Shown here piece after piece: positions 4,732 to 41,415 of a stretch of 64,000 nt of DNA; within the stretch, counting starts at the first letter, position 1, and each line of letters starts with the position of its first letter. A program made the position numbers and the translations under genes. The notes beneath the pieces are model-generated. The model saw only the letters and a list, made by a program, of their open reading frames with translations. It did no database searches and had not been told where the DNA came from. The stretch spans positions 19,976 through 83,975 of the forward strand of contig CAMRWN010000002.1 of the NCBI GenBank assembly GCA_947054455.1, written 5' to 3'. This DNA comes from an uncultured Alphaproteobacteria bacterium (GTDB taxonomy: Bacteria; Pseudomonadota; Alphaproteobacteria; Rs-D84).

Positions 4732-4909
4732 CGTAAAAAAGCTTGATTTTGCCTAAAAGACCGCTAAAATCAATACGTGTTTAATAATTTTGTTGTTTTT
4801 GCGGTTTTGCATCACGCCCATGCGGGCGAATGTTAGCGTTTACGATACACATATGATATAATATTGCATGAATATGCATAGGTTTTTGCGTAAAACATAG
4901 GAATAAAAA

Positions 4910-7382: not shown

Positions 7383-7952
7383 ATGGATAAAGAATTAATG
7401 AATTTGTTGGATAGGCCGATTGTTATGGTCGGACTTATGGGGGCAGGTAAAACCAGCATAGGTCGTGCGTTGGCGCGGCGGCTGGGGGTGTCGTTTGTTG
7501 ACTCTGACAAGGAGATAGAAGCGGCGGCCGGATGCAGCGTGGTTGATATTTTTGCTATGTACGGCGAGGCGGAATTTCGCCGTGTGGAACAGCGTGTTAT
7601 TTCGCGGCTGCTGGATGCGCCCCCGGCGCGCAAAGTTGTATCTACGGGCGAGGGGGCTTTTATAACCCCGGCGGTGCGTGAAATGGCTATGTCGCGCGCG
7701 TTGACAATCTGGTTAAAGGCTGACTTGGAACTGCTTGTTAAAAGAACGAATTTTAGAAACACGCGTCCTCAGCTGCTAAATGCAGATAGTCGTCAGATTC
7801 TGGCCCAGCTGATACGTGAACGCTATGATATTTATGCGATGGCGGACATCACTGTCGAGACGCGTGATGAAAGCCTGCGTAAAACATTGGACAAGGTTGT
7901 GGGTGCAATTAAAAGCTATATAAAAAAAGGAGAAGAAAATGGCGAAAAGTAA
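7383..7952 (+). CDS. aroK: Shikimate kinase
   Basis: Walker A motif GLMGAGKTSIGRALA and the typical AroK length and architecture. Confidence 0.85.
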   Translation: MDKELMNLLDRPIVMVGLMGAGKTSIGRALARRLGVSFVDSDKEIEAAAGCSVVDIFAMYGEAEFRRVEQRVISRLLDAPPARKVVSTGEGAFITPAVREMAMSRALTIWLKADLELLVKRTNFRNTRPQLLNADSRQILAQLIRERYDIYAMADITVETRDESLRKTLDKVVGAIKSYIKKGEENGEK

Positions 7953-8496
7953 TCTGTTTAAAGAATTCCGCAGTTTTATTGAGCGCGGCAGCGCAATTGA
8001 TATGGCGGTCGGTATCATTGTCGGCAGTGTGATGACCAGTGTTGTTAATTCGCTGGTAAAGGATATCATTATGCCGCCGATAGGGTTGCTGATTGGCGGG
8101 GTAGATTTCTCGCAGTTGTTTATTGTTCTGGCCGGCGGCAAGGGGCAGCATTTCCCTACTGTCGAAGCGGCCCAGGCGGCCGGCGCGACAACGATGAATA
8201 TCGGCGTCTTTATGAATTCCGTGGTCAGTTTCTTGATTACTATGTTCGCCATATTCCTGTTTGTTCGCACTGTTAATAAAATGCGTTCGAAAAAGCCTGC
8301 GACAACACGCGCGTGCCCTTATTGTACCAGCGCTATTAATATTGCGGCAACAAAATGCCCGTATTGTTGTTCGGCGGTTAAACCCGTTGCACAGGAGGCT
8401 GTCGATACAGACAGTGATTTAAAGAAATCTTTGAAAGATTTAACGAAAAAGGCGACAGGGCAGATTTCGAAAATAAAAAAGATTTCAAAGCGTTAA
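7939..8496 (+). CDS. mscL: Large-conductance mechanosensitive channel MscL with a C-terminal CxxC..CxxC extension
   Basis: MscL N-terminus (FKEFRSFIERGSAIDMAVGIIVG..IIMPPIG) followed by an extra ~60 aa containing CPYC-x10-CPYCC. Overlaps the aroK end by 14 nt. Confidence 0.85.
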   Translation: MAKSNLFKEFRSFIERGSAIDMAVGIIVGSVMTSVVNSLVKDIIMPPIGLLIGGVDFSQLFIVLAGGKGQHFPTVEAAQAAGATTMNIGVFMNSVVSFLITMFAIFLFVRTVNKMRSKKPATTRACPYCTSAINIAATKCPYCCSAVKPVAQEAVDTDSDLKKSLKDLTKKATGQISKIKKISKR

Positions 8497-8552: not shown

Positions 8553-8984
8553 AGTGGTGTGCAGGTGGGCGTGCGATATAGCCAGAAATCGGGCGCATTT
8601 GTATCGTATTTTTTTTTGTGTAAAGCGCGCAATAAAGGACGGGTATATATTCAGTATTTCCCGGATATTATTGTATTGTTTTTATAAAATAATTTATCAC
8701 TACGTTTGCGACGTTATGTATAGTTTTTTTGCGGGCGGGGGCTTGTTTAGATGATTTTATTGATGGGGTGTGAATGTGGTTTTTTGGGGTTTGGTTCGGG
8801 GTTAAATTGGTGCTGTAAATGATGTGTTGTGTAAATATTGGCTGGTTGGGTTGTTTTTGTTTGTTGTGGGGATGGGGGGGCTTTTTTTATACTTCTCGGG
8901 GCGGTGTTCCGGTTTGGGGTTGTGTGTTTGGATTTTTTTTGATGAAAAACTGGTGAAAAAATATCGTAAGGGTGGTATATCAAA

Positions 8985-9012
8985 AAGGCGCATAATTTAT
9001 ATTATGTATAGT
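8985..9012. other. dif-like XerC/D site (attL, host-type XerC arm)
   Basis: AAGGCGCATAA-TTTATA-TTATGTATAGT matches 21 of 28 positions of E. coli dif as I recall it (GGTGCGCATAATGTATATTATGTTAAAT). Confidence 0.8.
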
Positions 9013-9086
9013 TTACAAAGTGTGCCCTATCGGGTTAATATTTGATTTTACGATATAAATCGCAAAACCGACTTTATACAGATATA

Positions 9087-9221
9087 TTAAAGTCGTTTGT
9101 TAACTTTCCTATATCTAGTATCTTCTTTATACCATGCTCTTGCTCGAACACGAGAAAGAACGTACTCGAAAAACAAAGACAAAAACATAGCAAAAAAAAC
9201 AGAAAATAAAATCAACAACAT
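9087..9221 (-). CDS. 44-aa membrane peptide (N-terminal TM, basic tail), phage copy 1
   Basis: MLLILFSVFFAMFLSLFFEYVLSRVRARAWYKEDTRYRKVNKRL. The ATG directly follows the VP2 stop (GGAGGCAGTAAATG), with a GGAGG SD inside the VP2 end. Below the ORF-track cutoff. Confidence 0.6.
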   Translation of the reverse strand: MLLILFSVFFAMFLSLFFEYVLSRVRARAWYKEDTRYRKVNKRL

Positions 9222-10025
9222 TTACTGCCTCCATGCGCCAACAGCGGCAAGAGCCAATTCAGAAGGCGATATATAAAGCCTATCCAAATTCTGAATATCA
9301 CGACCAGTAGCACGCTTATAATCATCAGCTATCTTCATTCGTAACTGAGGACTTACAACATCACCATTAAGACCTATAGAACCATTCCTATAAGCATATT
9401 GCAAAGAAGACAAATAACCAGCATTATCAGAATCATTTTCTGTTACATCCTGATTAACCATCAATCGAGGGTCACCATTCAAGTCATATGCAATTCTAAA
9501 TAACTGAGAATCTGTACCAATAGGAGGCTGTTCGGTATTACCAGAAGGCATACCAGGCTGACGCATAATATTAAGTTCAGCCCTCATTGTATCGTTACGG
9601 ATACGCTTGGCCTCAAGGTCAAGATCCCTGCTCTCTTGCTCCTGACGATTAAAGATTTGCGAAATCCTATTAATAGCAGAAGATATCGCGCTACCTTTCT
9701 GATATCCAGCATCAGAATTGCCACCAGCACTCATGGTAGGACTAACATTTGAAGAAACACCCAAGGCGGCAAGAGGATTTATACCGGCCTTAAGGGCATC
9801 TCGAACTCGATACTGAGTCGCATTCTTCTGAAAGTCCATTTGCTCGTTAAATTGACGACGAGCCTCATGACGATTATGACGAGATTCTTTCTTACTAGAA
9901 GAAGAACCAAACAAACCACCAATTAAATCACCGACGGCACCAACACCGGCACCAATAAAAGAACCAAGTCCGGGGGAAATAGAAGTACCCAAAGTAGCAC
10001 CAGTTGCAGTTAGTTCACCTGCCAT
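9222..10025 (-). CDS. Microviridae minor capsid/DNA pilot protein (VP2/H-like), copy 1
   Basis: 267 aa with a Gly-rich N-terminus and QMDFQKNATQYRVRDALKAGINPLAALG, the conserved pilot-protein motif. Confidence 0.8.
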   Translation of the reverse strand: MAGELTATGATLGTSISPGLGSFIGAGVGAVGDLIGGLFGSSSSKKESRHNRHEARRQFNEQMDFQKNATQYRVRDALKAGINPLAALGVSSNVSPTMSAGGNSDAGYQKGSAISSAINRISQIFNRQEQESRDLDLEAKRIRNDTMRAELNIMRQPGMPSGNTEQPPIGTDSQLFRIAYDLNGDPRLMVNQDVTENDSDNAGYLSSLQYAYRNGSIGLNGDVVSPQLRMKIADDYKRATGRDIQNLDRLYISPSELALAAVGAWRQ

Positions 10026-10453
10026 TATTCACACCTTATTATTATTCCAGGGCGACGTGGTTTCTGTCCACCTTTTCCAGACTTTCCCTTAGCAAACAAC
10101 ACTTCACGACGCTCTCTACGCTGTACGCAAACTGGATGTTGCCTTGGTAAATCTACCTGAATTCTACCATACTGGCCAACAGAAATCAAGCCTATATTAT
10201 TTTGGTCCTGTACCGCCAAACGATTAGCGCGCTTTATATCCCGGCGGGACATATTAAGACGGCGCATCCTTTCGGATGGTACAGGGGGTACAAAGGGCCG
10301 TGTCGGTCGTATTTGTTCTCGACTAGACGGCCCTAATACAGACCGCAAGCCCCGTAGACGAGGGTCTACGAGAATGGACCTCGCCATTCGGGTTGCGGGA
10401 GTTGTTAATTTATCAACTCGATTTTGTCTTCTTATTCGTCTTCTCAAACTCAT
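10025..10453 (-). CDS. Arg-rich basic phage protein of unknown function, copy 1
   Basis: 142 aa starting MSLRRRIRRQNR. Its TAATG stop/start overlap with VP2 implies translational coupling. Confidence 0.6.
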   Translation of the reverse strand: MSLRRRIRRQNRVDKLTTPATRMARSILVDPRLRGLRSVLGPSSREQIRPTRPFVPPVPSERMRRLNMSRRDIKRANRLAVQDQNNIGLISVGQYGRIQVDLPRQHPVCVQRRERREVLFAKGKSGKGGQKPRRPGIIIRCE

Positions 10454-10492
10454 AACAAAATCCTGTCAATACGCACATACATAGACAAGCCA

Positions 10493-11023
10493 CTATGATG
10501 TATGTGCTCCGTCAGAAGCTTCTGGAGTATTGCTCGGCATGCCTGAGGGCTCTAAAGAGCCCGCAGGAACGGCCTCATCGGCCGATACTCCTGCTACAGG
10601 CATCAAAGGCTCTGCCGGCTTGCCGGCAGGCATTTTAGGCTCAGCAGCGGGGGATATCACTTCACCGAATTCATCTCGAACTTCGGTATTGTCCAACAGA
10701 CTATCATCATTCGGGTCCTCTTCGGGGTCATTCGTGAACATTTCGCCAAGAGCGAACTGCATCGAAGCACGGGAAGCAGACACCGCGGCGGCCAATCTAT
10801 CATAACGAGCGATACGCTCAGCAAGAGTTTCAGTCTTACGAATCCGGTCCACAAGCGGACCACGAACATGAACCTCATTACCATATTCATCCAGGTAAAT
10901 CTTGGCCTTTTCATTCCTAGACTTACTCAACGATTTTGACAAACGTTCAAATTCAGCATTTGCCAGGTCATGGCCAATATTACGAGCACGGGCCAAAATA
11001 AATGATTCTTTACTTATTTTCAT
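10493..11023 (-). CDS. Phage protein with acidic/Pro-rich C-terminus (candidate internal scaffolding protein), copy 1
   Basis: 176-aa ORF 11 nt downstream of the capsid gene. The scaffold call rests only on position and composition. Confidence 0.4.
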   Translation of the reverse strand: MKISKESFILARARNIGHDLANAEFERLSKSLSKSRNEKAKIYLDEYGNEVHVRGPLVDRIRKTETLAERIARYDRLAAAVSASRASMQFALGEMFTNDPEEDPNDDSLLDNTEVRDEFGEVISPAAEPKMPAGKPAEPLMPVAGVSADEAVPAGSLEPSGMPSNTPEASDGAHTS

Positions 11024-11034
11024 TTCATATTCCT

Positions 11035-12531
11035 TTATCTAAAACGAGGGTTACCATTCGGAGATACCATATTACGCTCGATAAACGTATTACGTATAGC
11101 CGCGGCCTCAACATGAGGCGAATTTTCCATATCATTAAAAATACGAGGTGATGGATTACACTCTAAAAAGTCAGAATTTAACTCAGGAGCAGTCGTAAAG
11201 ACTCGACCTTGATGATATACCAGGTTAGTACTTTTCATAGATCCAGACACGTCATTAAGAGAACTACGATACTCATCGTAACGGTTATAGTAACCCCAAC
11301 GCTGATTATCTTGCTCTTCATTACCAGTCGGGAACAAAATTCCTTTCTTCATTTCAGCCATACCAACATGGGCAAATTCCGGAGTATAAATATCCTCACG
11401 AACATCGAAAGCCCATTCCATAGGCTGAATATTAACATACAAGGGAGCCGGCCGGATACAAACCAAATGTATAACAGTCGATGGCTCTTCGAAGTATGTC
11501 TTATAAGAACATGAACCATAACCAGTAGCAGTTCCACCACGTTGTCCAACGTATGAACTGGTCCCGGGGGCTGTCTGCAAAACACCATTAACATCCATCA
11601 TAGAACGACCATGAGCCAAGGTTTCAGGTAACTGCAAACGACGGTCGGAATACTTAATACCTAAATATGCCAACCAATCACGAAACCTCGAACCATACAG
11701 ATTACGTTTTATCTTCCAGGCCTGTTGCGCCATCGCAAAATTAAAGTCAGAAGGCAATATGCCAGTCGATTGAGAAAGATCTGCAGTTAATCCTTCAATT
11801 ACACCAGAAGACTGAGCACTATATGAGGTTTGATTAGTAACATCACCACCAGGATTAACAAAAGAACCATTTGGTAAACCTGTAACTACTTTTAAAGAAC
11901 CTCTTGAAGTAGAAATCAAATTAGAATTACCAACAACAGGTGCAGAAGTTGCAAAAGGTATTACAACCTCATCACCAAGCTGTTCCTCGACCAAGGAAGT
12001 AGTAAAAATATCCTTGGGCCAATTCATATGCCACAACTGTGTATTAGTAACAGTATCAAGGCCAGAGGCAGTAGATACAGGCAATTTTTCCTGTATATTA
12101 GGATCTAATACATGCTCATTTATCCACATAGCATATAAACGGAACGGCAAAGCGTTACACTTAAGATTAGGAACACCAGTAGCAAAACCTAAATGGTCGG
12201 CCAAAGAACCAACAGGCCAACCGCCTTCAGCCGGGGCAAGTATATAAGGCGGAACCGGACGAGTATTACCGTCTTCACCACCTGTATAAAAATCCTCAGC
12301 ATCATCCCATAAAATACGGTCATAGCCTGATATAGCAAACGTATCAACACGCATCTGGGTCAATGATTGACGAGCCAGGGAAGCCATTTGAAAGCCACCA
12401 GCAACACCTCCTCGAACAGTAGTACCAGCTATACAATGCCTGGCCGCAGTAGGAACCAATTCGGCCATATTAAAGCTTGTAATACGAGTATTCGAACGAT
12501 TATGATTATATCTTTTTAATCGAACTACCAT
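11035..12531 (-). CDS. Microviridae major capsid protein (F/VP1), copy 1
   Basis: Motifs SFNMAELVP, LPFRLYAMWINEH, DIFTTS and GSRFRDWLAYLGIKYSDRRLQLPETL. Start set at ATG 12531 (GGAGAAAAAAAAGATG) rather than the ORF-track start at 12582. Confidence 0.95.
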   Translation of the reverse strand: MVVRLKRYNHNRSNTRITSFNMAELVPTAARHCIAGTTVRGGVAGGFQMASLARQSLTQMRVDTFAISGYDRILWDDAEDFYTGGEDGNTRPVPPYILAPAEGGWPVGSLADHLGFATGVPNLKCNALPFRLYAMWINEHVLDPNIQEKLPVSTASGLDTVTNTQLWHMNWPKDIFTTSLVEEQLGDEVVIPFATSAPVVGNSNLISTSRGSLKVVTGLPNGSFVNPGGDVTNQTSYSAQSSGVIEGLTADLSQSTGILPSDFNFAMAQQAWKIKRNLYGSRFRDWLAYLGIKYSDRRLQLPETLAHGRSMMDVNGVLQTAPGTSSYVGQRGGTATGYGSCSYKTYFEEPSTVIHLVCIRPAPLYVNIQPMEWAFDVREDIYTPEFAHVGMAEMKKGILFPTGNEEQDNQRWGYYNRYDEYRSSLNDVSGSMKSTNLVYHQGRVFTTAPELNSDFLECNPSPRIFNDMENSPHVEAAAIRNTFIERNMVSPNGNPRFR

Positions 12532-12615
12532 CTTTTTTTTCTCCAAAATTAAAAAACAATTGACGATAAACCATATAATCATATATGGTCATCTGCTTAT
12601 ATTCTCGATTTTTCA

Positions 12616-12702
12616 TCAATTAAAACCAAAAAAAGCACCAACGGCACCAACAATAGCACCAACAATTCCCCAGGCAAATTTTACCCATTTCATAGTATTC
12701 AT
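12616..12702 (-). CDS. 28-aa glycine-zipper hydrophobic peptide, copy 1
   Basis: MNTMKWVKFAWGIVGAIVGAVGAFFGFN. GGAGG lies 6 nt upstream and the ATG overlaps the Rep stop (TTATGA). Below the ORF-track cutoff. Confidence 0.6.
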   Translation of the reverse strand: MNTMKWVKFAWGIVGAIVGAVGAFFGFN

Positions 12703-13568
12703 AAATACCTCCTATGTCTTAATTTATCAGATTTTTTATCAAGTTTTTCGCGCTCTTGCCATTTCGGCCGAAGAATATCAGAAATTTCTTTCCAACTTAA
12801 CGGCACGCACGACACAGTTTCGCGAATCTTCTCTTTAACCAGAAAATCCTTGAACCTCTTCTGGTCGCTGAATTCTTGTTGTTCTTCCTCATTATATAAT
12901 TTCCAAATATTACGAAGCTTATCGCGAATATACCGAGGCAAACGAATCCATTTACCACCAATACGAACGCTAAACGGAGGATAAGCATAATTCAAAACAC
13001 GCTCACGAAATGACTCATCAGTAGCGAATTTCTCAAGTATATCATAAAGTAAACCATACCCTAAGGCAGGTTTCCTCGATGCCAAGAAAAATTCAGGTGT
13101 GCGACCGTCAAGACGAACATCACCTGATTTAGTCATTTTCTTTGTAACATAGCCAGATATATAATCACAACGACCATAAGTCATGTGGTCTATATCGACA
13201 TTACCAAAACGCCAAGCCTTACGTAATGCATCAAAGCAATCACTATCGGCAAAGACAGCAACATGATAATGTGCACGCTCTGTATCATCACCATATTCAC
13301 CAACTAAAAAAGTCCGGGGAGTATAGCCAAGAAAATATTCAAGACGTTTTTTGAACTTTTTAGCAGTTTCCTTGGACAAACAACCATCGGCCGGATAAAA
13401 CTCCGGGGAGTAAGTCAATCCAACGAAATAATTATAATTATGGTAACGCATTTCTATTTTAAGCCTATCGGCCCACTCTTTCTTCTTATTCTTCAAACAA
13501 CCTGGACACTTACCGCAAGAAGTGAAACCAAGTGAACTTGAATAATTTGGATTTGTACAATAAGCCAT
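12699..13568 (-). CDS. Microviridae replication initiator (HUH endonuclease, VP4/A-like), copy 1
   Basis: Motifs FVGLTYSP, HYHVAVF (HUH) and YISGYVTKK. The likely start is ATG 13568 (MAYCTNP). The ORF-track GTG start at 13691 lies inside the dif-like site. Confidence 0.9.
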   Translation of the reverse strand: MAYCTNPNYSSSLGFTSCGKCPGCLKNKKKEWADRLKIEMRYHNYNYFVGLTYSPEFYPADGCLSKETAKKFKKRLEYFLGYTPRTFLVGEYGDDTERAHYHVAVFADSDCFDALRKAWRFGNVDIDHMTYGRCDYISGYVTKKMTKSGDVRLDGRTPEFFLASRKPALGYGLLYDILEKFATDESFRERVLNYAYPPFSVRIGGKWIRLPRYIRDKLRNIWKLYNEEEQQEFSDQKRFKDFLVKEKIRETVSCVPLSWKEISDILRPKWQEREKLDKKSDKLRHRRYL

Positions 13569-13657
13569 TAATACGTACGCGCACGACGACGGTACAAGCG
13601 GCGTGCACCAGTACGCATACGCAAACGACGACGTAAACGATAACGACGAAATCTCAT
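13568..13657 (-). CDS. 29-aa Arg-rich DNA-binding protein (J/VP8-like), copy 1
   Basis: MRFRRYRLRRRLRMRTGARRLYRRRARTY has 15 Arg in 29 aa. An AGGAG lies upstream, and the stop overlaps the Rep ATG (TAATG). Below the ORF-track cutoff. Confidence 0.65.
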   Translation of the reverse strand: MRFRRYRLRRRLRMRTGARRLYRRRARTY

Positions 13658-13682
13658 GCCCTACTCCTATATATAGATGGAT

Positions 13683-13710
13683 AAGGCGCACTATTTATAT
13701 TATGTATAGT
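13683..13710. other. dif-like site between the two phage copies (phage-type attP)
   Basis: AAGGCGCACTA-TTTATA-TTATGTATAGT differs from the 8985 site only at positions 9-10 (TA to CT). Confidence 0.8.
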
Positions 13711-13784
13711 TTACAAAGTGTGCCCTATCGGGTTAATATTTGATTTTACGATATAAATCGCAAAACCGACTTTATACAGATATA

Positions 13785-13919
13785 TTAAAGTCGTTTGTTA
13801 ACTTTCCTATATCTAGTATCTTCTTTATACCATGCTCTTGCTCGAACACGAGAAAGAACGTACTCGAAAAACAAAGACAAAAACATAGCAAAAAAAACAG
13901 AAAATAAAATCAACAACAT
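13785..13919 (-). CDS. 44-aa membrane peptide, phage copy 2
   Basis: Matches 9087-9221 at +4698 (the tracked flanking ORFs are identical). Confidence 0.6.
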   Translation of the reverse strand: MLLILFSVFFAMFLSLFFEYVLSRVRARAWYKEDTRYRKVNKRL

Positions 13920-14723
13920 TTACTGCCTCCATGCGCCAACAGCGGCAAGAGCCAATTCAGAAGGCGATATATAAAGCCTATCCAAATTCTGAATATCACG
14001 ACCAGTAGCACGCTTATAATCATCAGCTATCTTCATTCGTAACTGAGGACTTACAACATCACCATTAAGACCTATAGAACCATTCCTATAAGCATATTGC
14101 AAAGAAGACAAATAACCAGCATTATCAGAATCATTTTCTGTTACATCCTGATTAACCATCAATCGAGGGTCACCATTCAAGTCATATGCAATTCTAAATA
14201 ACTGAGAATCTGTACCAATAGGAGGCTGTTCGGTATTACCAGAAGGCATACCAGGCTGACGCATAATATTAAGTTCAGCCCTCATTGTATCGTTACGGAT
14301 ACGCTTGGCCTCAAGGTCAAGATCCCTGCTCTCTTGCTCCTGACGATTAAAGATTTGCGAAATCCTATTAATAGCAGAAGATATCGCGCTACCTTTCTGA
14401 TATCCAGCATCAGAATTGCCACCAGCACTCATGGTAGGACTAACATTTGAAGAAACACCCAAGGCGGCAAGAGGATTTATACCGGCCTTAAGGGCATCTC
14501 GAACTCGATACTGAGTCGCATTCTTCTGAAAGTCCATTTGCTCGTTAAATTGACGACGAGCCTCATGACGATTATGACGAGATTCTTTCTTACTAGAAGA
14601 AGAACCAAACAAACCACCAATTAAATCACCGACGGCACCAACACCGGCACCAATAAAAGAACCAAGTCCGGGGGAAATAGAAGTACCCAAAGTAGCACCA
14701 GTTGCAGTTAGTTCACCTGCCAT
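13920..14723 (-). CDS. Microviridae pilot protein (VP2/H-like), copy 2
   Basis: Translation identical to 9222-10025. Confidence 0.8.
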   Translation of the reverse strand: MAGELTATGATLGTSISPGLGSFIGAGVGAVGDLIGGLFGSSSSKKESRHNRHEARRQFNEQMDFQKNATQYRVRDALKAGINPLAALGVSSNVSPTMSAGGNSDAGYQKGSAISSAINRISQIFNRQEQESRDLDLEAKRIRNDTMRAELNIMRQPGMPSGNTEQPPIGTDSQLFRIAYDLNGDPRLMVNQDVTENDSDNAGYLSSLQYAYRNGSIGLNGDVVSPQLRMKIADDYKRATGRDIQNLDRLYISPSELALAAVGAWRQ

Positions 14724-15151
14724 TATTCACACCTTATTATTATTCCAGGGCGACGTGGTTTCTGTCCACCTTTTCCAGACTTTCCCTTAGCAAACAACAC
14801 TTCACGACGCTCTCTACGCTGTACGCAAACTGGATGTTGCCTTGGTAAATCTACCTGAATTCTACCATACTGGCCAACAGAAATCAAGCCTATATTATTT
14901 TGGTCCTGTACCGCCAAACGATTAGCGCGCTTTATATCCCGGCGGGACATATTAAGACGGCGCATCCTTTCGGATGGTACAGGGGGTACAAAGGGCCGTG
15001 TCGGTCGTATTTGTTCTCGACTAGACGGCCCTAATACAGACCGCAAGCCCCGTAGACGAGGGTCTACGAGAATGGACCTCGCCATTCGGGTTGCGGGAGT
15101 TGTTAATTTATCAACTCGATTTTGTCTTCTTATTCGTCTTCTCAAACTCAT
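14723..15151 (-). CDS. Arg-rich basic phage protein, copy 2
   Basis: Translation identical to 10025-10453. Confidence 0.6.
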   Translation of the reverse strand: MSLRRRIRRQNRVDKLTTPATRMARSILVDPRLRGLRSVLGPSSREQIRPTRPFVPPVPSERMRRLNMSRRDIKRANRLAVQDQNNIGLISVGQYGRIQVDLPRQHPVCVQRRERREVLFAKGKSGKGGQKPRRPGIIIRCE

Positions 15152-15190
15152 AACAAAATCCTGTCAATACGCACATACATAGACAAGCCA

Positions 15191-15721
15191 CTATGATGTA
15201 TGTGCTCCGTCAGAAGCTTCTGGAGTATTGCTCGGCATGCCTGAGGGCTCTAAAGAGCCCGCAGGAACGGCCTCATCGGCCGATACTCCTGCTACAGGCA
15301 TCAAAGGCTCTGCCGGCTTGCCGGCAGGCATTTTAGGCTCAGCAGCGGGGGATATCACTTCACCGAATTCATCTCGAACTTCGGTATTGTCCAACAGACT
15401 ATCATCATTCGGGTCCTCTTCGGGGTCATTCGTGAACATTTCGCCAAGAGCGAACTGCATCGAAGCACGGGAAGCAGACACCGCGGCGGCCAATCTATCA
15501 TAACGAGCGATACGCTCAGCAAGAGTTTCAGTCTTACGAATCCGGTCCACAAGCGGACCACGAACATGAACCTCATTACCATATTCATCCAGGTAAATCT
15601 TGGCCTTTTCATTCCTAGACTTACTCAACGATTTTGACAAACGTTCAAATTCAGCATTTGCCAGGTCATGGCCAATATTACGAGCACGGGCCAAAATAAA
15701 TGATTCTTTACTTATTTTCAT
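15191..15721 (-). CDS. Candidate internal scaffolding protein, copy 2
   Basis: Translation identical to 10493-11023. Confidence 0.4.
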   Translation of the reverse strand: MKISKESFILARARNIGHDLANAEFERLSKSLSKSRNEKAKIYLDEYGNEVHVRGPLVDRIRKTETLAERIARYDRLAAAVSASRASMQFALGEMFTNDPEEDPNDDSLLDNTEVRDEFGEVISPAAEPKMPAGKPAEPLMPVAGVSADEAVPAGSLEPSGMPSNTPEASDGAHTS

Positions 15722-15732
15722 TTCATATTCCT

Positions 15733-17229
15733 TTATCTAAAACGAGGGTTACCATTCGGAGATACCATATTACGCTCGATAAACGTATTACGTATAGCCG
15801 CGGCCTCAACATGAGGCGAATTTTCCATATCATTAAAAATACGAGGTGATGGATTACACTCTAAAAAGTCAGAATTTAACTCAGGAGCAGTCGTAAAGAC
15901 TCGACCTTGATGATATACCAGGTTAGTACTTTTCATAGATCCAGACACGTCATTAAGAGAACTACGATACTCATCGTAACGGTTATAGTAACCCCAACGC
16001 TGATTATCTTGCTCTTCATTACCAGTCGGGAACAAAATTCCTTTCTTCATTTCAGCCATACCAACATGGGCAAATTCCGGAGTATAAATATCCTCACGAA
16101 CATCGAAAGCCCATTCCATAGGCTGAATATTAACATACAAGGGAGCCGGCCGGATACAAACCAAATGTATAACAGTCGATGGCTCTTCGAAGTATGTCTT
16201 ATAAGAACATGAACCATAACCAGTAGCAGTTCCACCACGTTGTCCAACGTATGAACTGGTCCCGGGGGCTGTCTGCAAAACACCATTAACATCCATCATA
16301 GAACGACCATGAGCCAAGGTTTCAGGTAACTGCAAACGACGGTCGGAATACTTAATACCTAAATATGCCAACCAATCACGAAACCTCGAACCATACAGAT
16401 TACGTTTTATCTTCCAGGCCTGTTGCGCCATCGCAAAATTAAAGTCAGAAGGCAATATGCCAGTCGATTGAGAAAGATCTGCAGTTAATCCTTCAATTAC
16501 ACCAGAAGACTGAGCACTATATGAGGTTTGATTAGTAACATCACCACCAGGATTAACAAAAGAACCATTTGGTAAACCTGTAACTACTTTTAAAGAACCT
16601 CTTGAAGTAGAAATCAAATTAGAATTACCAACAACAGGTGCAGAAGTTGCAAAAGGTATTACAACCTCATCACCAAGCTGTTCCTCGACCAAGGAAGTAG
16701 TAAAAATATCCTTGGGCCAATTCATATGCCACAACTGTGTATTAGTAACAGTATCAAGGCCAGAGGCAGTAGATACAGGCAATTTTTCCTGTATATTAGG
16801 ATCTAATACATGCTCATTTATCCACATAGCATATAAACGGAACGGCAAAGCGTTACACTTAAGATTAGGAACACCAGTAGCAAAACCTAAATGGTCGGCC
16901 AAAGAACCAACAGGCCAACCGCCTTCAGCCGGGGCAAGTATATAAGGCGGAACCGGACGAGTATTACCGTCTTCACCACCTGTATAAAAATCCTCAGCAT
17001 CATCCCATAAAATACGGTCATAGCCTGATATAGCAAACGTATCAACACGCATCTGGGTCAATGATTGACGAGCCAGGGAAGCCATTTGAAAGCCACCAGC
17101 AACACCTCCTCGAACAGTAGTACCAGCTATACAATGCCTGGCCGCAGTAGGAACCAATTCGGCCATATTAAAGCTTGTAATACGAGTATTCGAACGATTA
17201 TGATTATATCTTTTTAATCGAACTACCAT
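15733..17229 (-). CDS. Microviridae major capsid protein (F/VP1), copy 2
   Basis: Translation identical to 11035-12531. Confidence 0.95.
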   Translation of the reverse strand: MVVRLKRYNHNRSNTRITSFNMAELVPTAARHCIAGTTVRGGVAGGFQMASLARQSLTQMRVDTFAISGYDRILWDDAEDFYTGGEDGNTRPVPPYILAPAEGGWPVGSLADHLGFATGVPNLKCNALPFRLYAMWINEHVLDPNIQEKLPVSTASGLDTVTNTQLWHMNWPKDIFTTSLVEEQLGDEVVIPFATSAPVVGNSNLISTSRGSLKVVTGLPNGSFVNPGGDVTNQTSYSAQSSGVIEGLTADLSQSTGILPSDFNFAMAQQAWKIKRNLYGSRFRDWLAYLGIKYSDRRLQLPETLAHGRSMMDVNGVLQTAPGTSSYVGQRGGTATGYGSCSYKTYFEEPSTVIHLVCIRPAPLYVNIQPMEWAFDVREDIYTPEFAHVGMAEMKKGILFPTGNEEQDNQRWGYYNRYDEYRSSLNDVSGSMKSTNLVYHQGRVFTTAPELNSDFLECNPSPRIFNDMENSPHVEAAAIRNTFIERNMVSPNGNPRFR

Positions 17230-17313
17230 CTTTTTTTTCTCCAAAATTAAAAAACAATTGACGATAAACCATATAATCATATATGGTCATCTGCTTATAT
17301 TCTCGATTTTTCA

Positions 17314-17400
17314 TCAATTAAAACCAAAAAAAGCACCAACGGCACCAACAATAGCACCAACAATTCCCCAGGCAAATTTTACCCATTTCATAGTATTCAT
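17314..17400 (-). CDS. 28-aa glycine-zipper hydrophobic peptide, copy 2
   Basis: Matches 12616-12702 at +4698. Confidence 0.6.
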   Translation of the reverse strand: MNTMKWVKFAWGIVGAIVGAVGAFFGFN

Positions 17401-18266
17401 AAATACCTCCTATGTCTTAATTTATCAGATTTTTTATCAAGTTTTTCGCGCTCTTGCCATTTCGGCCGAAGAATATCAGAAATTTCTTTCCAACTTAACG
17501 GCACGCACGACACAGTTTCGCGAATCTTCTCTTTAACCAGAAAATCCTTGAACCTCTTCTGGTCGCTGAATTCTTGTTGTTCTTCCTCATTATATAATTT
17601 CCAAATATTACGAAGCTTATCGCGAATATACCGAGGCAAACGAATCCATTTACCACCAATACGAACGCTAAACGGAGGATAAGCATAATTCAAAACACGC
17701 TCACGAAATGACTCATCAGTAGCGAATTTCTCAAGTATATCATAAAGTAAACCATACCCTAAGGCAGGTTTCCTCGATGCCAAGAAAAATTCAGGTGTGC
17801 GACCGTCAAGACGAACATCACCTGATTTAGTCATTTTCTTTGTAACATAGCCAGATATATAATCACAACGACCATAAGTCATGTGGTCTATATCGACATT
17901 ACCAAAACGCCAAGCCTTACGTAATGCATCAAAGCAATCACTATCGGCAAAGACAGCAACATGATAATGTGCACGCTCTGTATCATCACCATATTCACCA
18001 ACTAAAAAAGTCCGGGGAGTATAGCCAAGAAAATATTCAAGACGTTTTTTGAACTTTTTAGCAGTTTCCTTGGACAAACAACCATCGGCCGGATAAAACT
18101 CCGGGGAGTAAGTCAATCCAACGAAATAATTATAATTATGGTAACGCATTTCTATTTTAAGCCTATCGGCCCACTCTTTCTTCTTATTCTTCAAACAACC
18201 TGGACACTTACCGCAAGAAGTGAAACCAAGTGAACTTGAATAATTTGGATTTGTACAATAAGCCAT
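17397..18266 (-). CDS. Microviridae replication initiator (VP4/A-like), copy 2
   Basis: Translation identical to 12699-13568. Confidence 0.9.
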   Translation of the reverse strand: MAYCTNPNYSSSLGFTSCGKCPGCLKNKKKEWADRLKIEMRYHNYNYFVGLTYSPEFYPADGCLSKETAKKFKKRLEYFLGYTPRTFLVGEYGDDTERAHYHVAVFADSDCFDALRKAWRFGNVDIDHMTYGRCDYISGYVTKKMTKSGDVRLDGRTPEFFLASRKPALGYGLLYDILEKFATDESFRERVLNYAYPPFSVRIGGKWIRLPRYIRDKLRNIWKLYNEEEQQEFSDQKRFKDFLVKEKIRETVSCVPLSWKEISDILRPKWQEREKLDKKSDKLRHRRYL

Positions 18267-18355
18267 TAATACGTACGCGCACGACGACGGTACAAGCGGC
18301 GTGCACCAGTACGCATACGCAAACGACGACGTAAACGATAACGACGAAATCTCAT
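18266..18355 (-). CDS. 29-aa Arg-rich J/VP8-like protein, copy 2
   Basis: Matches 13568-13657 at +4698. Confidence 0.65.
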   Translation of the reverse strand: MRFRRYRLRRRLRMRTGARRLYRRRARTY

Positions 18356-18380
18356 GCCCTACTCCTATATATAGATGGAT

Positions 18381-18408
18381 AAGGCGCACTATTTATATTA
18401 TGTATAGT
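18381..18408. other. dif-like site (attR, phage-type XerC arm)
   Basis: Same 28-mer as 13683-13710. Identity to the phage ends at 18410, after which host flank begins (tgtgttctgg). Confidence 0.8.
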
Positions 18409-18978
18409 TTTGTGTTCTGGTGGGCGCGAAAATGGCTATTTGTGTATATTTGTATGACTTTAATAAATCGTGTGCGTGGGACTAATTGATTGCTATCTTT
18501 TTATGAGAGTTTATAACGATAAAATGTGTATAAAAATATCTGTTAGTTTTATTATGAAAAAAGTTAATAAATTATTTTTAATAATTAAAATAATTTGTTG
18601 AATATATGAATATAATTTAATTTATCTGTTCGTGTTAAACATACTCATGGTTTATGCTGTTTTTATTATATTTGATGCATATTTGGCATCTGTTATACGT
18701 TTTTGTGTTTTATCATGATTATTTTGTTGCGTGATTATGTGAAAATATGTGGATATCGTCTTGATTTTGGCGGATTTTAATGGATTTTTCGTAAAATAAG
18801 CCGTAAAAACCGTGAAAAACCGCAGAAATCCGGGATTTTTTGCGTTTTTTAATATGTTTTTTACAAATTTTGTGCTTAATTTACCTGATTTGCTGCGGTT
18901 TGCCCTATAAAATACTTGAATTTGATTGGTGCAACGGCTAAAATTTTAACTGTTTAAATTAAAATTTTACCATAGGCG

Positions 18979-21381
18979 ATGAAAATGGCAGACAACATCA
19001 AAAAAATTCACGAGCGCGAAGCAAAATGGCAGCAGCGCTGGGCCCAGTCGGGCGTGTTTACGCCAAAAAACGACGGCAGCAAGCCGAAATACTATAATTT
19101 GATAGAATTCCCCTTCCCCAGCGGTTCCGGATTGCATGTTGGTCATATGCTGCCGTATACGGGGATGGACGTGCTGGCTCGTTTTCGTCGTATGCAGGGT
19201 TATGATGTTCTGTTTCCAATCGGATACGATTCCATGGGCATTTCATCAGAAAAGTACGCCACCAAGATTGGCAAGCATCCCAGCGAGTCGGTCGCGGAAC
19301 TGATAAAGATTTTTGAACGCGACATATCAATTATGGGGCTGTCGTTCGACGAGAATTCAAAGTTGGCGACATCCGACCCGGATTTTATAAAGTGGACACA
19401 ATGGATGTTTATACAGTTTTTCAAGGCGGGACTGGCGTATAAATCCGAACTGCCGATGAACTGGTGTCCGAACTGCCGCACCAATCTTACAAACGAAGAA
19501 CTGGAAGATGGCAAATGCGAACGCTGCCATGGGCCGGTTGAAAAGAGGATGAAGCTGCAGTGGAATTTGGCGATTACCAAGTACGCCGACCGTCTGATTG
19601 ATGATTTGTCGCTGGTGGATTATCCGTCGCGCGTCAAAACCGAACAGATAAACTGGATTGGGCGTTCGCATGGCGCGGACATCGACTTTATGGTTGGTGA
19701 TGACAAGATGACGATTTATACGACGCGTCCGGACACGATATTTGGTGCGACATTCTGTGTTATCGCGCCCGAGCATGCGCTTGTTAAAAAATGGCTGGAT
19801 GAGGGGCGTATTGAAAATGCCGACCATGTGCGTGAATACATTGCGGCCGCGCGCGCCAAAACAGAAATAGAACGTACCGACGCAACCAAGGAAAAAACGG
19901 GTGTGGAACTGCGCGGGATTCGTGCGACAAACCCGTTCAGCGGTGCGCAGATTCCTGTTTTTGTGGCGGATTATGTATTGGCGGATTACGGATTTGGCGC
20001 GATTATGGCGGTGCCGGCGCATGACGGCCGCGACTGGGATTTTGCGAAAAAATTTGGTCTGGATATAATTCCGGTTTTGGCCGGCGGGCGCCCGGACCAG
20101 GTGTGGGAAGGCGACGGCACGCACATAAATTCAGGATTTCTGGACGGCATGGACAAGGCCGATGCAATAGATGCCGCGATAAAGTTTGGCGCACAGCACG
20201 GTTTCGCACGCGGCACCACGAAGTATAAGTTAAAAGATTGGGGGTTTTCGCGTCAGATGTACTGGGGCGAACCGATCCCGCTGGTCTATTGCGAAAAATG
20301 CGGATGGGTTCCGGTTCCTGACGACCAGCTGCCGCTGATGCAGCCGTATATGTCTGACTACAGACCGACGGATGACGGGGAAAGCCCGCTGGCACGTGCG
20401 ACGGAATGGGTAAATACAACCTGCCCCCATTGCGGCGGTGCGGCCCGTCGCGAGACGGATACAATGCCGCAGTGGGCCGGTTCTTCGTGGTATTTTATGC
20501 GCTATCTGGATTCTAAAAATGATAATGAATTCTGCAATCGCGCCCAGTTGGAAAAATGGATGCCTGTCGACCATTACAACGGCGGGATGGAACATACCAC
20601 GCGCCATCTGCTGTATTCACGTTTTTGGTACAAGGCACTGTACGATTTGGGGTATGTCCCCGGTGTTGAACCGTATGTCAAGCGCACCAGCAGCGGCCTG
20701 CTGATGGCGGCGGACGGTACAAAGATGTCAAAATCGCGCGGAAACACCGTCCCCAGTTCCGATGTTGTTGAACGCAGCGGCGCAGACGCATGCCGTCTGA
20801 CGATTTTGTATCTGGGGCCGTGGGAGCAAAATGTAAACTGGTCCGAGGACACGCTGCGCGGTGTTGAACGCTTTTTGCGCCGGATTGAGAACATGGCGGA
20901 CAATTTGACCGATGATGCGATGACGACCGAACAGGAACGTTTGGTGCATCAGTTGATTGCGGACATGACCGAGCGTATTGCGGAAATGCGTCTGAATACC
21001 GCGATTTCTGCGATGATGGAATATCTGAACGCGTTTTCGGGCAAAATGCCCCGCCCCGCATATGAAACATTGCTGCAGATGTTGAACCCGTTCGCGCCCC
21101 ATTTGACCGAAGAAATCTGGGAAAAATTGGGGCATTCGGAAATGCTGGTGTTTCATCCGTGGCCCGCGTATGACGCGTCCAAGCTTTCCCGTGCGGAAAT
21201 GACGATTGTTGCATCCGTAAACGGCAAGCGCGCAGCTGATTTCAGCATGCCGGTTGGCGCCGCAGAGGCTGATATTATCGCTGCGGCCCGCACGGCGGCA
21301 GCGGCCAAGTTGGCCGGGGCCGAGATAATTAAAACAATTGTCGTTCCCAATAAATTGGTGAACTTTGTGGTGAAAAAGTAA
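18979..21381 (+). CDS. leuS: Leucine--tRNA ligase
   Basis: 800 aa with HVGH (HIGH-type) and KMSKS motifs and a CP1 editing-domain-sized insertion. Confidence 0.93.
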   Translation: MKMADNIKKIHEREAKWQQRWAQSGVFTPKNDGSKPKYYNLIEFPFPSGSGLHVGHMLPYTGMDVLARFRRMQGYDVLFPIGYDSMGISSEKYATKIGKHPSESVAELIKIFERDISIMGLSFDENSKLATSDPDFIKWTQWMFIQFFKAGLAYKSELPMNWCPNCRTNLTNEELEDGKCERCHGPVEKRMKLQWNLAITKYADRLIDDLSLVDYPSRVKTEQINWIGRSHGADIDFMVGDDKMTIYTTRPDTIFGATFCVIAPEHALVKKWLDEGRIENADHVREYIAAARAKTEIERTDATKEKTGVELRGIRATNPFSGAQIPVFVADYVLADYGFGAIMAVPAHDGRDWDFAKKFGLDIIPVLAGGRPDQVWEGDGTHINSGFLDGMDKADAIDAAIKFGAQHGFARGTTKYKLKDWGFSRQMYWGEPIPLVYCEKCGWVPVPDDQLPLMQPYMSDYRPTDDGESPLARATEWVNTTCPHCGGAARRETDTMPQWAGSSWYFMRYLDSKNDNEFCNRAQLEKWMPVDHYNGGMEHTTRHLLYSRFWYKALYDLGYVPGVEPYVKRTSSGLLMAADGTKMSKSRGNTVPSSDVVERSGADACRLTILYLGPWEQNVNWSEDTLRGVERFLRRIENMADNLTDDAMTTEQERLVHQLIADMTERIAEMRLNTAISAMMEYLNAFSGKMPRPAYETLLQMLNPFAPHLTEEIWEKLGHSEMLVFHPWPAYDASKLSRAEMTIVASVNGKRAADFSMPVGAAEADIIAAARTAAAAKLAGAEIIKTIVVPNKLVNFVVKK

Positions 21382-36219: not shown

Positions 36220-37791
36220 TTAACTGCGCGTCAGTGGGCGTTGCGGTTCTACATGACAACCGTTTTCGCGAAATAACTGGACTGAACGCATCCACCCTTT
36301 CAGAAATACCTTGTATTCAGGTTTTTTATCGGCCAGATTTACATAATATTGCTGCATGGTGTCCCAATATGCGTTATGCAAATCTTCTTGATAATTTTCC
36401 GCGGCGGCAATCAGTGTCTGGTCAACGGTGCCTGTTTCCGCCAGCCCCAGCGTTTTTTGCAGTTTTTTGACCCCATTGCCCGGACCCATGTTGAAATCAC
36501 CGCGCAGAACATCCCCGCGCACCGAATCCGGCAGACGGTCTATGTCGCGGGCGGTGTAAAATTTCGTGTATGTAAGGTCTTCTGCACCGGCGGGTGTCAA
36601 TTTTTTTACATCAATGTCGGGGTTATAGTTCTGTGCGAATCCATAGCATGTATATCCGCCACTGTCGGCCGGGTGGTCGCCGCATTCGCCTTCGACGCGG
36701 AATATTTGAATCATTGCTTTTTCAAATGCCGGATCCACGTTGGCATAGTCGCCGGTCGTCAAAATCTTGTTTGAAAACCAGTCGCTGGTTTCAGACGGCG
36801 TGCAGTTCCCGCCACGAGCCGTGTTGTCAAACGACTTTTTGGCTGTGGCGGCGACATCTGTTTTCTGGGTGGTGGGGGCGGCCTGTGTCCGTGTGGCAGG
36901 TTTTCTGTCGCCTATTGCAATAATTTGATTTTCCAATCCTTTGGATTGTGGGCAACGCTGCGCATCCAACGGATAGCGGTCGCAATATTGTTGCTGTGTC
37001 AATGTGGTGCTGTCTTCTGCCTGCCGGCTGCGCAGACGATTAATCTGCCTATCCAAATACTCTTCCTGTTTTTCTATATTGATAGTTTGGTAAACTTTTG
37101 CGTCTTTGAATGGTTCGTATCCCTGCGCCTTGTTCTGTGCGCGCTGTGTAAATGTATAGTCCGCCGCCGTTTCCGGAAAGTCCGCCAATGTAAGCGTCGG
37201 TTTTGACGCAGATGCATTTTCCATATCACGCAGCTGCTGCTGACGCGCTTTGATGTCGCGCTTCCAGTCTTCTTCCGCCGGCTGATACGGGTTTTGTATT
37301 TTAAACTGGGATCCACCCGCGTTTGTGTTCGGTGTTGTCGCATCAGGGAATGCCGCCCAGGCACTGGGGCCGGCGTTTGCATACTTGGATACAAAGGACG
37401 CGAATTCCGAATCGATAAATCCCGCACACGAAGATGCATAATTATGCCCCGGCATTCTGGACAGCTGGGTCATAATGGTCGGTCTGACATCCTTTAGATC
37501 CATCCCGATGCAGTTATTTTGAGCAGCGCAGAAGTTTGCGACCAATACAGATACCACCTGTATACAGTCGGCGGTGTTTAAATCCGCGCCCTGCAGATAA
37601 ACAGGCTGCGGCATTCTTTGGTTGTACGGACTGCCAGGATTCCAAAAGGGGTTCGATGAATAGTTCTGTACGTTTTGTATCTGACCATAATTAGATACTA
37701 CCCCGCCCTGGCCAACGGATGCCCCCCCGGCCCCACTGGACCAGGCCGCCATGACCGCAACAAAGATTATGCGCGCATTGTGTTTCATCAT
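36220..37791 (-). CDS. Secreted protein: unknown N-terminal module fused to a GH108-like muramidase plus PG_binding_3-like domain
   Basis: The C-terminus has VEGECGDHPADSGGYTCYG..LT..A..Y..GDFNMGPGNGVKKLQKTLG..TGTVDQTL, matching the GH108/PG_binding_3 pattern from memory. The ATG at 37791 overlaps the upstream stop (ATGA). Confidence 0.7.
   Translation of the reverse strand: MMKHNARIIFVAVMAAWSSGAGGASVGQGGVVSNYGQIQNVQNYSSNPFWNPGSPYNQRMPQPVYLQGADLNTADCIQVVSVLVANFCAAQNNCIGMDLKDVRPTIMTQLSRMPGHNYASSCAGFIDSEFASFVSKYANAGPSAWAAFPDATTPNTNAGGSQFKIQNPYQPAEEDWKRDIKARQQQLRDMENASASKPTLTLADFPETAADYTFTQRAQNKAQGYEPFKDAKVYQTINIEKQEEYLDRQINRLRSRQAEDSTTLTQQQYCDRYPLDAQRCPQSKGLENQIIAIGDRKPATRTQAAPTTQKTDVAATAKKSFDNTARGGNCTPSETSDWFSNKILTTGDYANVDPAFEKAMIQIFRVEGECGDHPADSGGYTCYGFAQNYNPDIDVKKLTPAGAEDLTYTKFYTARDIDRLPDSVRGDVLRGDFNMGPGNGVKKLQKTLGLAETGTVDQTLIAAAENYQEDLHNAYWDTMQQYYVNLADKKPEYKVFLKGWMRSVQLFRENGCHVEPQRPLTRS
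37061..37716. repeat. 656-bp direct repeat, copy 1 (inside the muramidase gene)
   Basis: Same sequence as 40640-41295 (offset 3579). ORF-track translations are identical in three frames. Confidence 0.85.
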
Positions 37792-40473: not shown

Positions 40474-41415
40474 TTATAATGTTATTATGATTGTATCTGC
40501 GGGCAGTTCCGTTGTCGTATCTGTGTCCGTTTTCGTTGGATTGGTCGCGTCGTATTTTCCTTCTTTCTTTTGGACGCTCTTTTTTGTATTCCCCACCGAC
40601 GTGCTTTTTCTTTCCCTGTCATCGCGACGTGCGTCGTAGTCTTCCTGTTTTTCTATATTGATAGTTTGGTAAACTTTTGCGTCTTTGAATGGTTCGTATC
40701 CCTGCGCCTTGTTCTGTGCGCGCTGTGTAAATGTATAGTCCGCCGCCGTTTCCGGAAAGTCCGCCAATGTAAGCGTCGGTTTTGACGCAGATGCATTTTC
40801 CATATCACGCAGCTGCTGCTGACGCGCTTTGATGTCGCGCTTCCAGTCTTCTTCCGCCGGCTGATACGGGTTTTGTATTTTAAACTGGGATCCACCCGCG
40901 TTTGTGTTCGGTGTTGTCGCATCAGGGAATGCCGCCCAGGCACTGGGGCCGGCGTTTGCATACTTGGATACAAAGGACGCGAATTCCGAATCGATAAATC
41001 CCGCACACGAAGATGCATAATTATGCCCCGGCATTCTGGACAGCTGGGTCATAATGGTCGGTCTGACATCCTTTAGATCCATCCCGATGCAGTTATTTTG
41101 AGCAGCGCAGAAGTTTGCGACCAATACAGATACCACCTGTATACAGTCGGCGGTGTTTAAATCCGCGCCCTGCAGATAAACAGGCTGCGGCATTCTTTGG
41201 TTGTACGGACTGCCAGGATTCCAAAAGGGGTTCGATGAATAGTTCTGTACGTTTTGTATCTGACCATAATTAGATACTACCCCGCCCTGGCCAACACTGG
41301 CGGAATATGCAGCATCGGGCGCCTGCGCCAATAAAAAAATTCCAGCGAAAATAAAGCGAATTTTCACCCTCTGCTTCCCTTTGTTATATAGATTATAACA
41401 AAAAGGACATTGCAA
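40474..41415 (-). CDS. Secreted protein sharing the N-terminal module of the muramidase gene, with a K/T/D-rich tail
   Basis: Residues SVGQGGVV..INIEKQE are identical to the 36220-37791 product. The start is uncertain; a GTG at 41367 would give signal peptide VKIRFIFAGIFLLAQA. Confidence 0.65.
   Translation of the reverse strand: MQCPFCYNLYNKGKQRVKIRFIFAGIFLLAQAPDAAYSASVGQGGVVSNYGQIQNVQNYSSNPFWNPGSPYNQRMPQPVYLQGADLNTADCIQVVSVLVANFCAAQNNCIGMDLKDVRPTIMTQLSRMPGHNYASSCAGFIDSEFASFVSKYANAGPSAWAAFPDATTPNTNAGGSQFKIQNPYQPAEEDWKRDIKARQQQLRDMENASASKPTLTLADFPETAADYTFTQRAQNKAQGYEPFKDAKVYQTINIEKQEDYDARRDDRERKSTSVGNTKKSVQKKEGKYDATNPTKTDTDTTTELPADTIIITL
40640..41295. repeat. 656-bp direct repeat, copy 2
   Basis: Same sequence as 37061-37716. 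Confidence 0.85.

Follow-up and report, generated by a model that had tools for sequence, protein, structure and literature searches.

The 64,000-nt stretch analysed here (hereafter the window; positions 19,976 to 83,975 of contig CAMRWN010000002.1, assembly GCA_947054455.1) carries, as assembled, two identical head-to-tail copies of a microvirus genome inserted at a dif site of an alphaproteobacterial chromosome. Judged by its gene content, the repeated unit is an integrase-less and complete genome of the Microviridae. It is very likely that this microvirus was integrated at dif by use of the host's Xer recombinases. The explanation as a whole, in which an active, temperate microvirus was integrated at dif by host Xer and subsequently formed an array, is regarded as likely, and the chances that the two-copy tandem is physically real are considered even.

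Direct comparison of the window with itself at an offset of 4698 nt, as suggested by a first-pass annotation of the sequence, revealed that positions 8995-13712 are identical to positions 13693-18410, with 0 mismatches over 4718 nt. The repeat is composed of a 4698-nt unit and a shared core of 20 nt, and identity breaks off sharply at both of its limits. Every open reading frame (ORF) of the unit was found again with the same translation at a distance of 4698 nt, and all unit genes are located on the minus strand. Furthermore, the unit features a guanine-plus-cytosine (GC) content of 0.418 versus 0.507 for the remaining window. The first-pass annotation had described two identical head-to-tail copies, an array richer in AT than its flanks and a position between mscL and leuS, all of which agree with these results and with the flanking ORFs.

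Three sites of the dif type were identified at the limits of the two copies. The XerC arm reads GCGCATAA at the left junction, corresponding to the host type, and GCGCACTA at the inter-copy and right junctions, corresponding to the phage type. The dif mimic of the phage is located in a non-coding region, comprises 28 bp in an 11-6-11 layout and deviates from the host dif by two changes in the XerC arm, the spacer (6/6) and the XerD arm (11/11) being identical. A 20-nt core, represented by positions 18391-18410, is common to all three sites. Core recombination between the host dif and a phage mimic differing in two XerC-arm bases would account for the observed junction pattern. Dif-like 26-mers were detected three times in the window, at these junctions and nowhere else, versus 0 expected by chance. 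Moreover, the left site is identical to the dif of unoccupied sites in four species (L017, L051, L065, L077), and all three sites of the array are complete and directly repeated. Since folding of the region around the phage attachment site (attP) revealed no significant hairpin of single-stranded DNA (ssDNA; z=-0.8), a double-stranded recombination substrate is favoured. A tRNA or tmRNA gene as attachment site was ruled out by Rfam and tRNA scans. With regard to the insertion site, the first-pass annotation placed the array correctly between mscL and leuS and overlooked both the chromosomal dif and its phage mimic. Its view that the array is truly integrated is confirmed by the hybrid attachment sites, by host DNA on both sides and by orthologous insertions in independent assemblies.

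The LeuS protein encoded to the right of the array is 83-86% identical to sequences from metagenome-assembled genomes (MAGs) of 'Candidatus Enterousia' or Alphaproteobacteria originating from animal and human guts, in line with the alphaproteobacterial host proposed initially. Based on this similarity, the host is assigned to the 'Candidatus Enterousia' lineage of the order Rs-D84. The prfA-aroK-mscL ... leuS arrangement was observed in approximately 40 related loci. A single copy of GGCGCATAATGTATATTATGTATAGT with 0-2 mismatches was found in 54 of 75 related alphaproteobacterial loci and in none of the five Bacillota (Firmicutes) loci. Where a locus includes mscL, the dif is situated a few hundred bases downstream of this gene in one and the same orientation. 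The conserved site is mostly unoccupied among related genomes, and the spacer variant TTTATA of the window is common to four species. By our own count, 22 of the 28 positions match the E. coli dif sequence; because of this match and the 11-6-11 layout, the site is assigned as the chromosome-dimer-resolution site of the genus. A related genome (L065) encodes a full-length XerC-like recombinase (2.4e-83, below the equivalog cut-off). Members of the Enterousia/Rs-D84 group are uncultured, mostly possess genomes of less than 1 Mb and probably depend on a partner organism (PMC12306168); phages go unmentioned in the text of that study.

Profile searches for the capsid protein and Rep, likewise proposed in the first-pass annotation, support its assignment of the unit to a complete Microviridae genome. 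The major capsid protein VP1 matched PF02305 (E=2.6e-57 over 21-506) and phrog_514 (8.7e-91) and showed remote similarity to the solved microvirus capsids PDB 8des and 9cgm, whereas matches for Rep were obtained with PF23343 (E=8.5e-14) and phrog_942 (4.3e-56). Rep contains the motifs FVGLTY, HYH and YISGYVTKK; in the form FxxLTY, HYH and YxxGYVxKK these are invariant in the Reps of seven clade members, as are residues H100-Y101-H102 and Y136/Y140. The pilot protein VP2 was recognized by phrog_11693 (1.6e-14) and weakly by PF13488. Accordingly, a single jelly-roll capsid protein of the F/VP1 type, an HUH Rep, a pilot protein and a small genome (4698 nt, Microviridae comprising about 4.3-6.3 kb), features typical of the family, are present. 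For circular ssDNA packaged in T=1 virions, a further family trait, the observations are indirect: the inter-copy junction corresponds to that of a circle, and relatives have been deposited as circular virome genomes. The 4.7 kb unit is filled entirely by the genes listed in the table below. Among the scanned phage ORFs, no match to recombinase families was found in Pfam, PHROGs and NCBIfam, where Rep, VP1, p176, p142 and the pilot protein were compared with all three libraries and the small ORFs with Pfam and/or PHROGs only. A defective remnant was rejected as an interpretation, given that the genes are all intact, the copies identical and free relatives exist. The HUH identity of Rep had been recognized from the beginning; the 330-aa ORF originally assigned to it is over-extended from an upstream GTG, Rep itself comprising 289 aa, and a separate 29-aa J-like ORF is located at 13568-13657.

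The order of genes typical of Gokushovirinae, VP1-VP2-VP3-(VP5)-(J)-VP4 as in the layouts of phiMH2K and Chp2, is absent. Instead, two proteins unrelated to VP3, p176 and p142, precede VP2; hhalign comparisons of both with gokushovirus VP3 yielded no relation (probability <1%), and searches of Pfam, PHROGs, NCBIfam, PDB sequences and PDB profiles returned no match for either. On the basis of gene order and VP3, the element is not classified as a gokushovirus. The earlier statement that its layout deviates from the classic gokushovirus arrangement is correct, while the peculiarity of this order was overstated, as it represents the order of the clade and is shared with free virome genomes. A role of p176 as scaffold protein is only a guess, and p142 features invariant His/Cys residues at its C-terminus. 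A one-helix peptide is encoded at the position of the 44-aa ORF in all relatives and represents a candidate lysis or membrane peptide. The C-terminus of the 28-aa peptide is also conserved in the related prophage L084. As a separate observation, a 41-nt repeat, 80% identical, is common to the 28-aa peptide ORF and the N-terminal part of the pilot gene (9906-9958; also at +4698).

Table. Coordinates of the array, its attachment sites, phage genes and further features (window positions unless a locus is named)
Feature	Position	Strand	Basis or remark
Prophage copy 1	8995..13692	-	4698 nt; exact repeat
Prophage copy 2	13693..18390	-	4698 nt; identical to copy 1
Left junction, 28-bp dif, host-type XerC arm	8985..9012	+	AAGGCGCATAA-TTTATA-TTATGTATAGT; phage DNA follows
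Inter-copy junction = phage attP, phage XerC arm	13683..13710	+	AAGGCGCACTA-TTTATA-TTATGTATAGT; flanked by phage DNA
Right junction, phage XerC arm, spacer and XerD arm	18381..18408	+	same site as inter-copy junction; then host DNA
J-like Arg-rich DNA-binding protein, putative, 29 aa	13568..13657; copy 2 18266-18355	-	conserved in relatives
HUH rolling-circle Rep (VP4), 289 aa	12699..13568; copy 2 17397-18266	-	PF23343, phrog_942
Glycine-zipper peptide, 28 aa, directly after Rep	12616..12702; copy 2 17314-17400	-	ORF
37-aa ORF, overlaps VP1 start	12506..12619; copy 2 17204-17317	-	conserved Q(L/M)TIYD(Y/F) motif
Major capsid protein VP1, 498 aa from MVVRL	11035..12531; copy 2 15733-17229	-	PF02305, phrog_514
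p176, acidic, 176 aa, clade-specific	10493..11023; copy 2 15191-15721	-	conserved in 10 clade members
p142, basic, 142 aa, clade-specific	10025..10453; copy 2 14723-15151	-	conserved in 11 clade members
DNA pilot protein VP2, 267 aa, Gly-zipper N-terminus	9222..10025; copy 2 13920-14723	-	phrog_11693
Hydrophobic peptide, 44 aa, after pilot gene	9087..9221; copy 2 13785-13919	-	ORF
Host mscL, left flank	7939..8496	+	ORF; PF01741 on orthologues; synteny; prfA and aroK upstream
Host leuS, right flank	18979..21381	+	ORF; identity to Enterousia/Alphaproteobacteria MAGs (see text)
Conserved motif GCCCTATCGGGTTAA / GCCCTAYCGGGTTAA, ~10 nt from dif mimic	9024..9038; copy 2 13722-13736	+	sequence conservation
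Orphan XerD-arm half-site TTATGTATAGT (GGATTATGTATAGTT)	8714..8724	+	~270 nt upstream of dif; G+T-rich spacer follows
Inverted-arm site, L001	L001:8750-8799		inverted XerC arms
Inverted-arm sites, L086	L086:44-105, 4753-4814		inverted XerC arms
Inverted-arm site, L085	L085:4787-4852		inverted XerC arms
Inverted-arm site, L121	L121:17790-17850 (approximate)		inverted XerC arms
Inverted-arm site, L089	L089:3451-3501		inverted XerC arms
Paralogous ORFs sharing a 656-nt repeat	36220-37815 (531 aa), 40474-41415 (313 aa)	-	ORFs

In the protein database, approximately 190 relatives of VP1 were detected. A scan of GTDB genomes with VP1 yielded no match, and scans of JGI metagenomes and IMG/VR a single close relative (L092). 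The nearest deposited genomes are those of Microvirus mar6 (MZ089752; VP1 66% identical) and of the bajarodmic viruses 910, 786 and 626 (VP1 58% and 55%). These are free circular genomes of 4.6-4.9 kb from rodent and marmot faeces, to which no bacterial host has been assigned and whose nucleotide identity to the unit amounts to ~70% over 27-44% of its length. They exhibit the gene order of the unit. An Enterousia-type dif motif separates their pilot gene from the J-like gene and, just as in the window, is antisense to the genes. Altogether, the motif was noted in four host-less virome genomes, namely L088 (MZ089752), L089, L090 and L091. This feature predicts Enterousia-like hosts and a temperate lifestyle for mar6, bajarodmic 910/786 and Dipodfec virus 962.

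Those VP1 relatives on long contigs that were looked up proved to be inserted at the same dif, in the independent assemblies L001, L084, L092, L122 and L126-L129; those of L001 and L128 are located on scaffolds of 685 kb and 121 kb, respectively. Furthermore, arrays are common: two different, unrelated microviruses are situated side by side between dif sites in L085 and in L121 and L123-L125 (human gut, 12 similar places). Since the two phages differ, these mixed arrays do not represent artefacts of collapsed repeats. The L121 array encodes VP1 proteins of 495 aa and 607 aa and features a perfect dif between the two phages. In total, at least three microvirus lineages occupy the Enterousia dif, the third, a distant one, being present in L016 and L052.

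Two designs of the attachment site were encountered. The window phage, L084, mar6 and bajarodmic 786 each possess one dif mimic that is complete and double-stranded; the same holds for L076, a microvirus prophage unrelated to them. Two inverted XerC arms are present in L001, L086 and in one phage each of L085 and L121. Strong hairpins consisting of an XerC-arm stem, an asymmetric bubble and an XerD-arm stem were predicted by folding for L001, L086 and the second phage of L085 (z -4.8 to -8.7). Inclusion of the partly folding bajarodmic 910, which looks intermediate, extends this range to z -4.5 to -8.7. In integrated phages of the inverted-arm type, the genes face the opposite way to those of the window phage and the left junction lacks the XerD arm. 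Judged by these sequence features, the inverted-arm attP is a CTXphi-like single-strand design within Microviridae.

Xer-dependent lysogeny of a microvirus has been demonstrated experimentally in E. coli (PMC7062461). From that gokushovirus and from work on integrative mobile elements exploiting Xer (IMEX) of Vibrio (PMC4246890), we infer the mechanism for the window phage, including Xer dependence, a double-stranded substrate, reversibility and release driven by Rep. Following infection, the ssDNA would be converted to a double-stranded replicative form, and host XerC/XerD would recombine the phage mimic with the chromosomal dif between mscL and leuS. On its left, the inserted phage would then be bordered by a dif of the host type and, on its right, by a site carrying the XerC arm of the phage. 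Entry of a second identical genome, or of a dimeric replicative form, by the same route would lead to the arrangement dif-phage-attP-phage-dif'. Because the three sites are complete and directly repeated, XerC/XerD could excise one or both copies again. Provided that the tandem is real, Rep might nick one copy at a putative origin and end replication at that of the following copy, yielding unit-length circles without excision as described for CTXphi. It appears unlikely, all considered, that a real array serves as a rolling-circle launch pad from which the lysogen continuously sheds ssDNA and virions without excising the prophage. Such a strategy, if true, would be of the CTXphi style and has not been described for Microviridae; it would occur in a clade that also features CTX-like hairpin sites and in a gut bacterium with a reduced genome and probable host dependence.

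Several points speak against integration by Xer followed by array formation, or against parts of this explanation. The tandem is known from assembled sequence alone, and its middle junction equals the junction of a free circle. Instability would be expected of a dimer that has three complete dif sites in direct orientation, and lysogens of the E. coli gokushovirus lose their prophage readily (PMC7062461). Moreover, the Rep origin in the unit is only putative, a search for xerC and xerD in the window found neither gene, and GC skew, examined as a terminus marker, displays no sign change at the site within these 64 kb. A single integrated copy coexisting with circular phage DNA, printed twice by an assembler that traversed the loop in its graph, has a little less than an even chance of being the correct explanation. 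The inter-copy junction is identical to the junction of the circular attP, and the sequence cannot separate a tandem from a circle. The exact dimer scaffold of the relative L086 extends exactly 55 nt beyond the phage-specific bases on each side (L086:1-55, 9464-9518), and these 55 nt are shared with the empty-site allele. It is therefore a path in a k=55 assembly graph, delimited by the branches of the empty site, and illustrates how a loop may be written out as two copies by an assembler. A Logan contig encoding an identical VP1 (498-aa version) has a length of 4718 nt and corresponds to the collapsed unit between both junction branch points; it proves no more than that the three types of junction were present together in some set of reads. 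In addition, circular DNA accompanies E. coli lysogens (PMC7062461), and MAG data are known to include identical microvirus genomes in concatenated form (PMC9239249). An actual array is favoured by the junction pattern, which fits two successive integrations, and by the natural occurrence of multi-phage arrays at the Enterousia dif. Long reads or good pairing are weakly suggested by an exact repeat of 656 nt that the assembler resolved in another part of the window. A further point against a single copy is that loop resolution based on coverage is not known to print two copies unless the depth of the unit is about twice that of the flanks.

Integration of the phage as ssDNA via a folded hairpin attP, in the manner of CTXphi, is considered improbable. 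Close relatives with inverted XerC arms do form strong hairpins and have left junctions devoid of the XerD arm, and CTXphi needs tandem copies for that reason (PMC4246890); however, the window phage features a single complete double-stranded dif mimic whose hairpin is not significant, and excision stays possible at all three complete sites. A chimeric misassembly, joining the circular genome of a free phage to a chromosomal contig of unrelated origin without any integration, could be suspected in view of the uncultured host, the probable MAG source and the deviating GC content of the phage. It is scarcely credible: within the dif of the host itself, the junctions form reciprocal hybrids at a 20-nt core. 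Moreover, many independent assemblies carry related phages in this same dif, which is vacant in most related genomes. A random chimera was rejected on the basis of these hybrid junctions and the repeated use of the same site.

Further features were observed in the vicinity of the attachment sites and elsewhere in the window. The motif adjacent to the dif mimic is conserved in L084, mar6 (L088), bajarodmic 786 (L090) and even in the distant L076 phage, and is possibly an origin or a regulatory element. An orphan XerD-arm half-site, invariant in 10 species, lies upstream of dif at a distance of 230-370 nt and shares its orientation (window, L007, L017, L033, L042, L051, L061, L075, L076, L001); the spacer following it in the window (8725-8984) consists of 76% G+T and is not conserved. 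In other loci, orphan XerD arms are found downstream of dif, in inverted orientation and at a distance of 20-60 nt. Orphan XerD arms may have been left behind by old elements that exploited Xer, or may constitute an accessory XerD site. Apart from the array, a 656-nt exact direct repeat is present at 37061-37716 and 40640-41295, where it constitutes the common N-terminal domain of two paralogous minus-strand ORFs; its 100% identity suggests a recent duplication or gene conversion.

New aspects of this study are the host lineage, the assignment of a host to the phage clade, the array habit and the coexistence of both attP designs within a single clade. In the literature searched, no account of microvirus prophages in tandem was found. 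The results link gut microviruses of a hitherto orphan clade (mar6, bajarodmic and Dipodfec viruses) to 'Candidatus Enterousia' hosts. The dif of these hosts emerges as a common landing pad, used by at least three lineages of microviruses either alone or in arrays. The group provides a natural comparative system for integrase-less ssDNA phages exploiting XerC/XerD outside Vibrio and E. coli. Concerning annotation practice, exact microvirus dimers in MAGs may be loop traversals and need validation at the level of reads.

Integrase-less microvirus prophages using dif are known from Bacteroidetes (2011, PMC3091885) and from E. coli gokushoviruses (2020, PMC7062461); the principle ranks as known because it was described in 2011 and shown experimentally in 2020. 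Like the window phage, Enterogokushovirus EC6098 (Kirchberger & Ochman 2020, PMC7062461) has a genome of ~4.3-4.7 kb, no integrase and a non-coding 28-bp dif motif. Prophages of this type insert beside the bacterial dif and leave it intact, both sites being kept, which renders integration reversible; the same arrangement is found here. A requirement for both XerC and XerD was demonstrated for these prophages. In contrast to EC6098, the host of the window phage is Enterousia (Alphaproteobacteria, Rs-D84) and not a member of the Enterobacteriaceae, its capsid is only remotely related without nucleotide matches, its gene order is VP1-p176-p142-VP2-...-J-VP4, and its site differs from that of the host in the XerC arm and not in the spacer or XerD arm. 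Moreover, two copies are present here, and the word 'tandem' is absent from PMC7062461. The BMV1-7/Alpavirinae proviruses (Krupovic & Forterre 2011, PMC3091885) are likewise integrase-less microviruses flanked by dif-like sites, some with a second inverted dif-like site reminiscent of CTXphi. Unlike the window phage, they reside in another phylum, have genomes of ~6.3 kb and belong to a distant capsid lineage; their integration at a true chromosomal dif could not be established (PMC3091885).

CTXphi, VGJphi and TLCphi also exploit XerC/XerD at dif, where single, multiple and mixed elements stack, and CTXphi copies in tandem provide a chromosomal template from which phage ssDNA is made by the rolling-circle mode (PMC4246890). 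In contrast to the window phage, these three are filamentous Inoviridae (PMC4246890). Homology on the XerD side is missing in VGJphi and the XerD arm is missing in TLCphi, while CTXphi employs a hairpin; the attP of the window phage, in contrast, matches the whole spacer and XerD arm of the host. It is a single double-stranded site as in VGJphi, but with 6/6 spacer and 11/11 XerD-arm positions homologous to the host, and at z=-0.8 it does not form the forked hairpin of CTXphi. With no integrase found, an insertion at the host dif and a dif-like attP flanked by reciprocal hybrid junctions, the element is, as far as its sequence indicates, a member of both the Microviridae and the IMEX class, and neither VGJ-type nor CTX-type.

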